In this document: piece after piece, positions 14,413 through 37,250 of the stretch | Position numbering within the stretch: the first letter of the stretch is position 1 | Layout: every line of letters begins with the position of its first letter | NCBI GenBank assembly: GCA_965261735.1 | Contig: OZ253470.1 | Span: 1,952,001-2,016,000 of the forward strand | Origin: Alphaproteobacteria bacterium | GTDB taxonomy: Bacteria; Pseudomonadota; Alphaproteobacteria; SHVV01 | DNA length: 64,000 nucleotides | Direction of reading: 5' to 3' | The notes under the pieces: generated by a model | The model's database searches: none | Seen by the model: the letters and a program-made list of their open reading frames with translations, nothing else | What the model was told of the DNA's origin: nothing | Made by a program: the position numbers and the translations under genes

Positions 14413-14535
14413 TGTCAACGGCGGAGTAAAATGGGGCCACCGCGGCGGTGTAAAGAAGAGCCACCGGCGGCTGCGAGCTTGTCCCCGTAGATCCTATGAG
14501 GCGACTCGGCGAGCGGCGCTACGGTGCCGCCGGCC
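14413..14535 (+). mobile_element. IS21-like terminal fragment
   Basis: TGTCAACGGCGGAGTAAAATGGGGCCA followed by a repeat GGCGGTGTAAAGAAGAGCCA, the multi-repeat end typical of IS21. Confidence 0.55.
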
Positions 14536-15120
14536 AGGAATCCTTCGCCGTTGTCGCGCCGCACGATGTTCCGCAGCGCCGCGTTGGCCTCCATGGTCGA
14601 GGCATCGACGCCGATGCGCTCGCCCTTGATCAGCCCCGCCTCGGCGATCAGCACCAGAACCCAGTCGAAGACCGCCGCGTGGACTTCATGGGGCAGGCGC
14701 GTGCGGCTCCGTGACAGCTAGGAATGGTCCGGTACCCGATCACGGCTCCCCAGTCGCAGGAACGCCCGCAGCGGAAGCGAGTCCGAGCAGCGCCACTCCA
14801 GACCGCGCTCGCTGTCGATGCCCTCGAAGTAGCCCACCAGGTGCATCCGGAAATAGCGCCCGGGCGGCACCGAGGGCGCGCCCATCCGGGCCGCGTAATA
14901 AGGCCGGCAGCTCGCCTCGGCAAAGGCGTCGAAGCCGCCCTCGATCAGCTCCGACTGCAGGCGGTCATAAAACACATGACCCGGAGAGCGCGGCATCTCC
15001 GACCAGCTCACCATCAGGTCCCCCTGACCATCCTTCTGCCGTCCCACCGCCATCGGCGAATCCCCCTGCAAATCAGGGAACCAGAGAATCAGACGGCGCC
15101 GACTTAATCAACGGGCTGCT
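14536..15120 (-). mobile_element. IS1182/IS5-like element, 5' part, transposase with in-frame stop at 14718-14720
   Basis: GHVFYDRL...GAPSVPPGRYFRM...IDSERGLEW...PDHS*LSR...VDASTMEANA. End AGCAGCCCGTTGATTA. Confidence 0.75.
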
Positions 15121-15197
15121 GAGCCCCATGCTGATCAGCCCGTGCAGCGCGGCGGAGGAACAGACGAAGGTATCGAGGGCTTCATTGCGCTCGCCAT

Positions 15198-15621
15198 CTG
15201 GCGAACAAGATGGCGCGCATCATCTGGGCGCCGACGGTCAAGAAGGAAACCTACCGGGCGCCAGCAGCGGTTGCCGCTGGTCCGGAATAGCTACCCGGAA
15301 GAGAAAGGCTGTTTAGAATTGGAACGCCGGGCTCTGCGGACACGGTCTTGAGGGCGTGATGCGCGGATAACCCCGGTTGGTGCGGTTGGGACGAAAGACA
15401 ACATAGGGGCGAAAGGTCAGAAAAACGGGGTCGGAAAAACCAGTATGAGACGCAGGGCTGTGAAGCATACCGCCTCACCGATTTGGATCCGATCCACGAA
15501 CACCATATGGGCCCGCGGCGCATGAATGCCGCTTCACAGAGGCCGGACATACGACAGTACCTGACCGCATGTCACAAGTTGTTCAAATTCCTTCTCGCGC
15601 TGCAGGGGGCGTCCACATACG
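15198..15621 (+). mobile_element. Second IS1111-type element, 3' relic (transposase tail, non-coding region and right end)
   Basis: LANKMARIIWAPTVKKETYRAP, GAGGCCGGACATACGAC in the non-coding region, right end GGGGGCGTCCACATACG. Confidence 0.75.
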
Positions 15622-15760
15622 TCTCATGGCAGACATCGATACCGCGCTCGGACAAGAGATCTTCGACTTGTCTCAGCGACAACGGGTAACGGACATACAT
15701 CATGACCGCGAGGCGGATGATCTCGGGCGAACTGTTGAAGTAGCGGAAGGGATTTAGCCT
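15620..15760 (-). pseudogene. IS6-family transposase N-terminal fragment, interrupted at CHET
   Basis: NPFRYFNSSPEIIRLAVMMYVRYPLSLRQVEDLLSERGIDVCHET. Confidence 0.85.
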
Positions 15761-37068: not shown

Positions 37069-37250
37069 GAGTAAATGGGCTTGAGCTAAAAAGTAAGATC
37101 TCGTAGCCTCCGGCGATGCACAATCCTTTCCGTTATTTCAACAGTTCGCCTGTGGCAATCCGCAGCGCGGTGATGCTGTATGTCCGTTACCCCTTGTCGC
37201 AGAGCCGTGCGGTACTGGTAGATTCTTCAGTTCCGACCCAGTTAGTCTGA
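37066..37250 (+). mobile_element. Internally deleted IS6 element, both IRs interrupted by IS1111 copies 3 and 4
   Basis: MHNPFRYFNSSPVAIRSAVMLYVRYPLS (37116..) lies between TCAGAGTAAATGGG and CCCAGTTAGTCTGA. Confidence 0.8.

Follow-up and report, generated by a model that had tools for sequence, protein, structure and literature searches.

A dead IS1111-group element whose predicted guide RNA was very probably programmed against the H-E-T-V-R codons of IS6 transposase genes

The window analysed here, a 64-kb stretch of the alphaproteobacterial genome G000 (a single 5.03-Mb contig, OZ253470.1), carries at 15198–15621 the 3' relic of an insertion sequence (IS) of the IS1111 group, which abuts a fragment of an IS6-family transposase gene. 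Comparison with related copies makes it very probable that the relic is what is left of a dead element, the guide RNA of which was written to match the H-E-T-V-R codons in tnpA of IS6. The target class, and the lineage, which we label D-type, are probably new, and the mechanism is probably a known one. At the level of sequence, the anatomy of the element, a rule linking its guides to its flanks, the site in relatives and the repeated use of that site can be regarded as demonstrated; we infer an RNA produced and employed in the manner of ISEc11 and IS621, and CCTCAC as the left flank before its loss.

The relic comprises 30 transposase codons, a 329-nt non-coding right end and the right subterminal repeat (Table 1). 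The open reading frame end at 15198–15290 aligns with the C-termini of many IS110-family transposases of G000; its 54-aa translation has no match in Pfam. Element sequence upstream of 15198/15199 is lost, and BLASTN against the full-length element L033 of genome G008 starts at 15199 (query 1032–1442 of 1442, 92% identity over 424 nt). In the parts of the report used here, IS1111 members are described as having a long non-coding region downstream of the transposase gene (tnp) and subterminal repeats with 7-bp left and 3-bp right extensions (PMC11187229). The same layout is found here: 329 nt separate the stop codon (15288–15290) from the tip at 15619, the left end ahead of the tnp start is shorter than 100 nt in relatives, and, of the subterminal repeats (about 11–13 bp in this group), the right one has its 3-bp extension. 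At the right tip GGGGGCGTCCACATACG (15605–15621) is followed by TCTCAT (15622–15627), while the left partner, gone from the window copy, reads GTGGACGCCCCC in relatives and is preceded by the 7-bp extension CGATGG(T/G). A preliminary description of this DNA had located the right end correctly but placed the boundary before a single G; under the published 7-bp/3-bp convention (PMC11187229) the element proper ends at ...GTCCACATA (15619) and the core is the dinucleotide CG at 15620–15621.

On the other side of this core the minus strand (15619–15760) translates to RLNPFRYFNSSPEIIRLAVMMYVRYPLSLRQVEDLLSERGIDVCHET, and the junction falls, as previously described, exactly after C-H-E-T. Similarity to other IS6 copies stops at 15758. 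The fragment of the window has no Pfam match by itself, and its assignment to IS6 comes from the continuous gene at locus L036 (PF13610, 137.7 bits against a cut-off of 27, 3.8e-40), the distal part of which matches NF033587 at profile positions 47–201 of 202 (120.7 bits for a partial protein, cut-off 125). The window fragment is 91% identical at the protein level to the IS6 copy at L002, a second relic in G000, and is related to 23 other IS6 N-termini of this genome.

Four short segments of the non-coding region correspond to the ends and flanks of the element. Guide 1, ATGAGACG, is the reverse complement of CGTCTCAT (15620–15627) and thus fits the right flank at 8/8 positions. Guide 2, with CCTCACCG at 15473–15480, predicts that the lost left flank was CCTCAC, that is GTG AGG (Val-Arg) on the IS6 strand. 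ACATACG at 15547–15553 fits the element's own end. All of these motifs had been picked out in the preliminary description and lie where it put them. The donor-binding segments fit both tips, the left one being taken from relatives L036 and L037 (CG-ATGGTGTGGACGCC), as the window retains no left end. Taken alone, the 8-mer match is not significant: ATGAGACG occurs three times on both strands of the window when 2.53 occurrences are expected, and 45 of 100 shuffles reach three. The case rests on comparison: what raises guide 1 above chance is its place in the alignment, a column that in eight other IS1111-type elements is occupied by the reverse complement of the core and right flank of the element concerned.

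G000 contains 46 matches to the right end of the relic and 29 near-full-length matches to IS1111-type transposases, which form family A (13 copies), family B (10 copies, three in the window), family C (4 copies) and singletons. When the right-end non-coding regions are aligned, a conserved scaffold is broken by short variable blocks, four of which follow the ends and flanks of the copy that bears them. Block 1 is the reverse complement of core and right flank; block 2 repeats the left flank, the core and the first 1–2 left-end bases; block 3 is the complement of the left end; and block 4 is the right tip, the core and an A. In the window relic ATGAGACG, CCTCACCG and ACATACG fall in blocks 1, 2 and 4, and ACACCAT (15500–15506) is block 3. 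This rule was seen at fixed columns in eight element types with known flanks. For family C the left reading GCAAAAA-TG-AT is perfect at 4/4 junctions, and CGTGGTACA fits TG-TACCACG perfectly at 3/4 with one mismatch at the fourth, c3422170; for family B GCATTGTC fits (T)G-ACAATGC, the right flank being ACAATG or ACAACG in 7/8 copies that keep their right end. The singletons c647871 and c3419803 (the latter with core AA) and the D-type copy L038 of G008 also obey the rule. In the D-type of genomes G004 and G163, guides CACGGCGCG and CTGAAG-CG-AT face flanks CG-CGCCGTG and CTGAAG-CG. More than 30 further right ends of IS1111 type in G000 keep the scaffold at 73–77% identity, and the column homologous to 15547–15554 holds ACACACGA in family A, ATACATGA in family B and ACAGATGA in family C, in every case in agreement with the family's own end. 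Between non-coding regions that are 87–94% identical, the guide segments are the only differing blocks and they follow the flanks; the G004 copies validate the rule within the same scaffold as the relic.

RNAalifold on 12 sequences gives 27 pairs, only five of them with compensatory changes (covariation term -0.79 kcal/mol). In its consensus the target guides face each other across an internal loop that helices close; the structural support for a guide RNA is modest. Positions of the IS621 handshake guides could not be mapped onto the RNA of the relic. We also considered the block at 15531–15538 (CTTCACAG, against CACTTGAG in the G004 variant) as an additional target or handshake segment and rejected it, L038 having a different target and sharing the block of L036.

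The junction of the window recurs in other copies. A scan of the species-genome collection with the exact right-end/IS6 20-mer returned three matches, namely the 51-nt relic L032, the G004 relic L034 (=L019) and the full-length L033; the sole match in metagenomes, L035, has no similarity to the element and was discarded as a chance match. G008 holds three full-length D-type copies and one relic, and two of the three full-length copies, L036 (=L033) and L037, lie inside IS6 tnpA between the Thr and Val codons. Their left junction reads ..GAACCGTAC-CG-ATGGTGTGGACGC.. and their right junction ..CCACATA-CG-TCTCATG.., hence ..CCGTAC-CG-(element)-CG-TCTCAT.., and a single CG restores the CHET VRFWWNRFGP frame, as in the copies L043, L045 and L046, so that the insertion is scarless. 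Across the insertion (a slash marks the junction) the IS6 gene reads ..ERGIDICHET / VRFWWNRFGPLFAAELRK.. to its natural stop, the site being HET/VRFWWNRFGP. It had been anticipated that full-length relatives would sit in IS6 tnpA at HET/VR with the left flank CCTCAC; the position held, but the flank is CCGTAC, which equals the guide 2 of these copies and also encodes Val-Arg (GTA CGG). Guide 1 is ATGAGACG in L037 (8/8 match) and ACGAGACG in L036 (7/8). In the L002 relic the last 210 nt survive at 94% identity and meet a diverged IS6 copy at this same junction. Compared with ATGAGACG and CGTCTCAT of the window, guide 1 (ACGAGACG) and the flank (CGTCTCGT) of L002 show a compensatory change, and its guide 2 is CCGCAC. 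In total, seven copies from four genomes share the right-end/IS6 junction (window, L002, L019, L032, L036, L037 and L041). The proposal that CCTCAC-CG-TCTCAT reads H-E-T-V-R on the IS6 coding strand, and that the element was programmed against IS6, thus gains support from L036 and L037, from the seven junctions and from the guide variants described below.

D-type right ends were found in 3/401 genomes sampled across the class, G000 included, and in 2/8 genomes of the family, the order-level set consisting of the same eight genomes. A distant-mode search of PLSDB plasmids gave matches in 144 records, confined to the scaffold (at about 75% identity in alphaproteobacterial plasmids) or to IS6, and 0/144 covered at least 80% of the query; L053, the best annotated locus among them, bears no features. 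Live-looking transposase genes are present in sister variants (L014, L012 and L017 of G004, L038 of G008), the products of which score as NF033542, 'IS110 family RNA-guided transposase'; the intact relative L014:556-1584 gives 313.6 bits with this model (cut-off 140), 58.3 bits with PF01548 and 80.3 bits with PF02371. As a side observation on L002, at 1215–1500 of this locus (G000 ~2960227–2960512) the left part of the element and about 50 IS6 codons have been deleted together, and the non-coding region, cut at AAAAGGTCAG, is fused straight to the middle of an IS6 tnpA (..EVFATKQRDRRAALKF..), seemingly the distal portion of the gene it had entered.

The guides vary in register with the code of their target. 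All four guide 2 variants (Table 1) encode Val-Arg, and in guide 1 the wobble base of the His codon (CAT/CAC) is the sole one to vary. The variable positions are H3, V3, R1 and R3, i.e. 4/14, with every variant still encoding HETVR; 6/14 positions can change synonymously, and the chance of this outcome by position alone is C(6,4)/C(14,4) = 15/1001. Uninterrupted IS6 sites were observed in the same genomes: L043 (G004) reads CAC GAG ACG GTG CGG, the exact L002 guide pair, L045 (G008) reads CAT GAG ACG GTG CGG and L046 (G004) CAT GAG ACG GTC CGG, while two contigs of metagenome X1 read ..CCGTAC/CGTCTCAT.., an empty site. Seven intact IS6 copies of another subgroup in G000 (..GIDVSNETVRRW, NETVRRW) carry ACGAGACGGTGCGA, which matches the L002 guide pair at 13/14 positions; an xETVR motif would offer targets across IS6 subgroups, given a live element.

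We propose the following course of events. A live element would have been excised as a circle joined at its CG core, and the right-end non-coding region would have given a bridge or seek RNA with two modules. In the donor module ACACCAU would pair with the left tip of the element itself, and ACAUACGA with its right tip. The target module would specify CCTCAC-CG-TCTCAT, which is the antisense of CAT GAG ACG GTG AGG, the H-E-T-V-R codons in the helix-turn-helix region of the IS6 transposase; with such a target the insertion would be antisense and fall between the Thr and Val codons, splitting the IS6 gene. Later deletions would have taken the left 1030 bp of the element, the distal part of IS6 and the IS6 start.

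Several observations weigh against this reading. The window copy is an inert relic that has no left end, left flank or transposase, and its own left half-target is therefore unreadable. All IS6-targeting copies are dead, five being truncated at different points and two being full length with a frameshifted tnp. Family A follows the rule more loosely, its right flank beginning with TTCG in 5/13 copies and with an offset of one base in two more, and its left flank ending in AC in 11/13. Sampling is thin, as the three genome matches came from a 20-mer that already contained the IS6 flank, and a flank-independent, guide-only pattern gave 0 matches in species genomes and 0 in metagenome contigs; the first version of this pattern was too strict, the L033 scaffold having one A fewer and a C-to-T change. 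The minimum-free-energy fold of the guide-RNA core is unexceptional (z = -1.17), the donor module is poorly resolved by RNAalifold and no Rfam family matched at E<=1. RNA-library contigs spanning the non-coding region have the guides of the sister variant, and as DNA carry-over is possible they are no proof of transcription. Finally, the exact predicted target CATGAGACGGTGAGG was not found in G000, nor among 11 HETVR-pattern matches in four genomes, and the CCTCAC flank was seen once, in a contig of RNA library X19 (depth 3.5) that reads ..GAACCTCAC-CC-TCTCAT, with CC replacing the CG core.

The failure to find an intact CCTCAC-CG-TCTCAT site leads to the best of the alternatives, in which HET/VR of IS6 was indeed targeted but the guide 2 of the window, CCTCAC, arose from CCGCAC by decay after the element had died, so that the literal flank never existed. 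Single-base decay is expected in a relic only 92% identical to L033 over 424 nt, and the three uninterrupted IS6 sites have GTG CGG (two) or GTC CGG, GTA CGG being restricted to two IS1111-occupied copies and a decayed relic. Nevertheless, the change sits at the one first-codon position that keeps Arg (CGG to AGG), guide 1 of the window fits its own flank perfectly, and an IS6-like contig of X19 does have ..GAACCTCAC.. at this place, albeit as one contig of depth 3.5 with core CC. We therefore consider decay of guide 2 unlikely, although it deserves real weight; it would leave the targeting of IS6 unchanged.

Far less probable, in our judgement, is a single ancient insertion into one IS6, followed by the spread of an IS6::IS1111 composite through IS6 transposition, duplication and horizontal transfer, so that the shared junction would reflect common descent. 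The junction is exactly the same in all seven copies, all of them are degraded, and, as long as its ends are intact, an IS6 with tnpA disrupted could presumably still move in trans; moreover, the IS6 flanks of the window and L032 are identical (126/126), so that this pair at least is one event. However, co-descent predicts similar divergence on both sides of the junction, and the IS1111 parts are far more alike than the adjoining IS6. The last 105 nt of the right end are identical at 97–103/105 positions in 15 comparable pairs, while the adjoining 126 nt of IS6 are identical at 97–114/126 positions between copies, the window and L032 excepted; for L036 versus L037 the values are 103/105 and 97/126, and across junction-bearing copies the IS1111 ends are 94–98% alike against 77–90% for the IS6 flanks. 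In addition, guide and flank covary between the window and L002, the guides fit the site by a rule validated in unrelated elements, and sister variants (85–94% identical) with other guides occupy other sites that fit those guides. With the window and L032 counted as one event, the uniform element in diverged hosts, together with the covariation of guide and flank, favours repeated independent insertion at one IS6 site, in about six events, over one inherited insertion. As for the idea that the matches are coincidental and that protein or DNA structure rather than an RNA guide chose the site, we give it almost no credence: the 8-mer does occur at the chance rate in the window, no Rfam family matches and the fold energy is unremarkable, but in eight element types the match occupies one fixed column of the scaffold, the guide segments alone differ, and follow the flanks, in non-coding regions 87–94% identical, and experiments described in the parts of the reports used here established RNA guidance for members of IS1111 and IS110 (PMC11187229, PMC11208160).

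Programming against IS6 is probably one case among the D-type variants, which are 85–94% identical at the DNA level and have differing guides with matching sites. G004, from the same family and another genus, has five full-length relatives of 1465 bp that are 87–88% identical to the window fragment and carry guides CACGGCGCG and CTGAAG-CG-AT, the flanks being ..CTGAAG/CG on the left of L012 and CG/CGCCGTG on the right of L014-L017. This variant lies in an IS21-like istA at ..ELLFDQM/RAVVLSDD.. in L015-L017 and in L058 of G163; the rve match at this site is below threshold, and an IstB-like open reading frame follows. In L012 it lies in a DDE_Tnp_1_4 gene at ..IAHLLK/RPVG.., with PF13701 on both sides, and two left-end relics of G000 (4476233–4476757 and 4351612–4352031) occupy the same place. 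The left flank of L014 shows DDE_Tnp_1_6 below threshold (20.4 bits against 25.1), and the host gene of L038 has a DDE_Tnp_1 match about 490 nt from the junction in a neighbouring frame, with no match in a Pfam scan of the flanks immediately beside L038. The sites that could be typed are all in transposase genes: IS6, IS21-like, DDE_Tnp_1_4, DDE_Tnp_1 at about 490 nt and one below threshold.

Two of these variants deserve a separate description. The CACGGCGCG/CTGAAG variant looks like a hybrid, its left guide being perfect for HLLK/RPVG and its right guide perfect for FDQM/RAVV; copies are found in both sites, mismatched on the other half, which amounts to natural insertion at half-matched targets. 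L038, with an intact transposase, carries guides ACATGACG and CCGAAG. The left junction of L038 shows CG, but on the right the sequence is ..CCACATA-GG-TCATGT, in which GG replaces the expected CG core. Contigs of X19 join further sequences to the D-type right tip, at the loose ends 15619 and 15621. One reads ..ACATA/TGCGCCGTGG, the IS21-type site but with TG, and another reads ..ACATACG/CGCGATGAAGCGTTATGGCCGGCC, which in sense orientation translates to RAMKRYGRP, a motif internal to IS6 tnpA; either an additional site of IS6-directed insertion or a rearrangement may lie behind it. Neither the small word shares of runs X18-X20 nor the parts of the stretch left uncovered allow inference on habitat or expression.

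Tentatively, the D-type could be viewed as a 'transposon of transposons' that re-programs its guides against conserved codon blocks in the transposase genes of other ISs, disabling the host IS and riding on its copy number and mobility; this reading draws on few loci and partly weak domain calls. As part of it, and possible to the same degree, the IS6-branch guides, which change only where they mirror synonymous sites, would bear the signature of a guide that tracks, or is selected by, the coding constraint of its prey.

The surroundings of the relic hold further mobile elements. Its upstream neighbour, 70 unique bases away, is part of a DUF772-type (IS5-like) transposase gene (14415–15127, minus strand) with an internal stop, which is repeated at 96–98% identity at four other places in G000 and may be linked to the truncation. 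The relic, this fragment and the cut IS6 fragment make the locus a pile of IS debris. The preliminary description had also proposed that two RNA-guided elements converge on IS6; this is borne out for the one at HETVR and, for family B in the IS6 terminal repeat, looks right as far as it was checked. Family B (core TG, guides GCATTGTC and GTTAGTCTGA) lies in the window at 11.8–13.2 kb (+), 17.5–18.9 kb (-), ~35.7–37.07 kb (-) and from 37.23 kb (+). Its insertion point is about 10 bp inside an IS6-like terminal repeat (GGCATTGT-CA-GA(G/C)TAA..); a left end at 37069 abuts the 5' leader of an IS6 tnpA (ATG at 37117), and the further copy at 37236 abuts ..GACCCAGTTAGT, apparently the opposite IS6 end.

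Table 1. Features of the relic and its IS6 neighbour, guide 2 variants, and uninterrupted IS6 copies of the second subgroup.
Feature	Position or copy	Strand	Remarks
IS1111-group (IS110-family) transposase 3' end	15198..15290	+	last 30 codons LANKMARIIWAPTVKKETYRAPAAVAAGPE plus TAG
Right-end non-coding region	15291..15619	+	329 nt; encodes the predicted bridge/seek RNA
Predicted guide-RNA core	15414..15566	+	outer helix AGGTCAG/CCTGACC; target-binding module 15426-15498, donor-binding module 15499-15556
Guide 1 (right-target-guide-like, RTG-like) ATGAGACG	15445..15452	+	complementary to top strand of core CG and right target flank TCTCAT
Guide 2 (left-target-guide-like, LTG-like) CCTCAC + CG + AT	15473..15482	+	same sense as left target flank, core and first two left-end bases
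Donor guide (right-donor-guide-like, RDG-like) ACACCAT	15500..15506	+	complementary to left-end ATGGTGT of IS6-targeting relatives L036, L037
Donor guide (left-donor-guide-like, LDG-like) ACATACGA	15547..15554	+	right tip ACATA, core CG and first left-end base
Right subterminal inverted repeat GGGGGCGTCCAC + 3-bp terminal extension ATA	15605..15619	+	repeat itself 15605-15616
Core dinucleotide CG	15620..15621	.	crossover site; bases 2 and 3 of IS6 Thr codon ACG; common to element and target
IS6-family tnpA N-terminal fragment, ..NPFRYFNSSPEIIRLAVMMYVRYPLSLRQVEDLLSERGIDVCHET	15620..15758	-	~46 codons; cut by IS1111 after Thr; own 5' part truncated near 15758
Guide 2 CCTCAC	window		reverse complement GTG AGG
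Guide 2 CCGCAC	L002 and one X1 contig		reverse complement GTG CGG
Guide 2 CCGTAC	L036, L037		reverse complement GTA CGG
Guide 2 GCGTAC	one X1 metagenome contig		reverse complement GTA CGC
Uninterrupted ACGAGACGGTGCGA copies	G000 394448-394576, 399377-399523, 402537-402665, 1655710-1655838, 3535937-3536065, 4470198-4470326, one more

RNA-guided IS110/IS1111 recombinases are a young field, the mechanism having been published in 2024, and their natural targets are mostly described as REP (repetitive extragenic palindromic) sequences, attC sites and the terminal repeats of transposons. A lineage aimed at coding motifs of transposases would mean that natural guides can be tuned to protein-constrained DNA, a durable multi-copy target. 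Together with the alleles that match them fully or nearly, CCTCAC, CCGCAC, CCGTAC and GCGTAC offer natural data on how guide and target co-vary and on mismatch tolerance; antagonism or hitch-hiking of one IS on another would be documented and could shape the IS load of genomes. The value of the window relic itself is that of a clue leading to live relatives. In the literature searched we found no report of an IS1111 or IS110 element that targets IS6 tnpA, although the supplementary target tables of the 2024 papers, or ISfinder, may list such cases.

The comparison with known systems draws on parts of the reports cited. The anatomy of the window, with its CG core, fits the published layout of seekRNA and bridge RNA (PMC11187229, PMC11208160). 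ISEc11, ISKpn4, ISPst6 and ISPa11 (Siddiquee et al. 2024, PMC11187229) share with the D-type a DEDD transposase, the downstream non-coding region, the 7-bp/3-bp extensions and the order of the guides, the complement of the top strand standing 5' of the match to the bottom strand and the two overlapping at the insertion point in the target. The targets described there are a short linear site, attC sites and REP sequences, whereas the D-type is directed at a conserved codon block in the transposase gene of another IS; unlike those elements, that of the window is known from the sequence of a relic alone. IS621 (Durrant et al. 2024, PMC11208160; Hiraizumi et al. 2024, PMC11208158) likewise uses a bispecific RNA with target and donor loops and the core in each guide, and inserts without a scar, but it has its RNA in the left end, core CT and no long subterminal repeats, while the D-type has its predicted RNA in the right end and core CG. 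Also in contrast to IS621, the D-type has the R-type guide before the L-type guide and its donor guides in a predicted position around a hairpin-bearing multiloop; IS1111 bridge RNAs lie in the right end, and donor guides in the multiloop are a feature of many IS1111 orthologues (PMC11208160). Close IS1111 relatives are naturally re-programmable (PMC11187229): between ISEc11 and ISXne4, as between D-type variants, the RNA stems are kept and the target-matching segments are swapped, with correspondingly different sites, although the transposases of that pair are 72% identical and the D-type variants are closer (85–94% DNA identity). IS4321, also of the IS1111 group, resembles the D-type in homing on a fixed position within another transposon. 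Its target is a non-coding terminal repeat, which makes family B, seated in the IS6 terminal repeat, its closer analogue, whereas the D-type target is the coding H-E-T-V-R block, so that insertion destroys the transposase of the host element and the target can vary at synonymous sites only.

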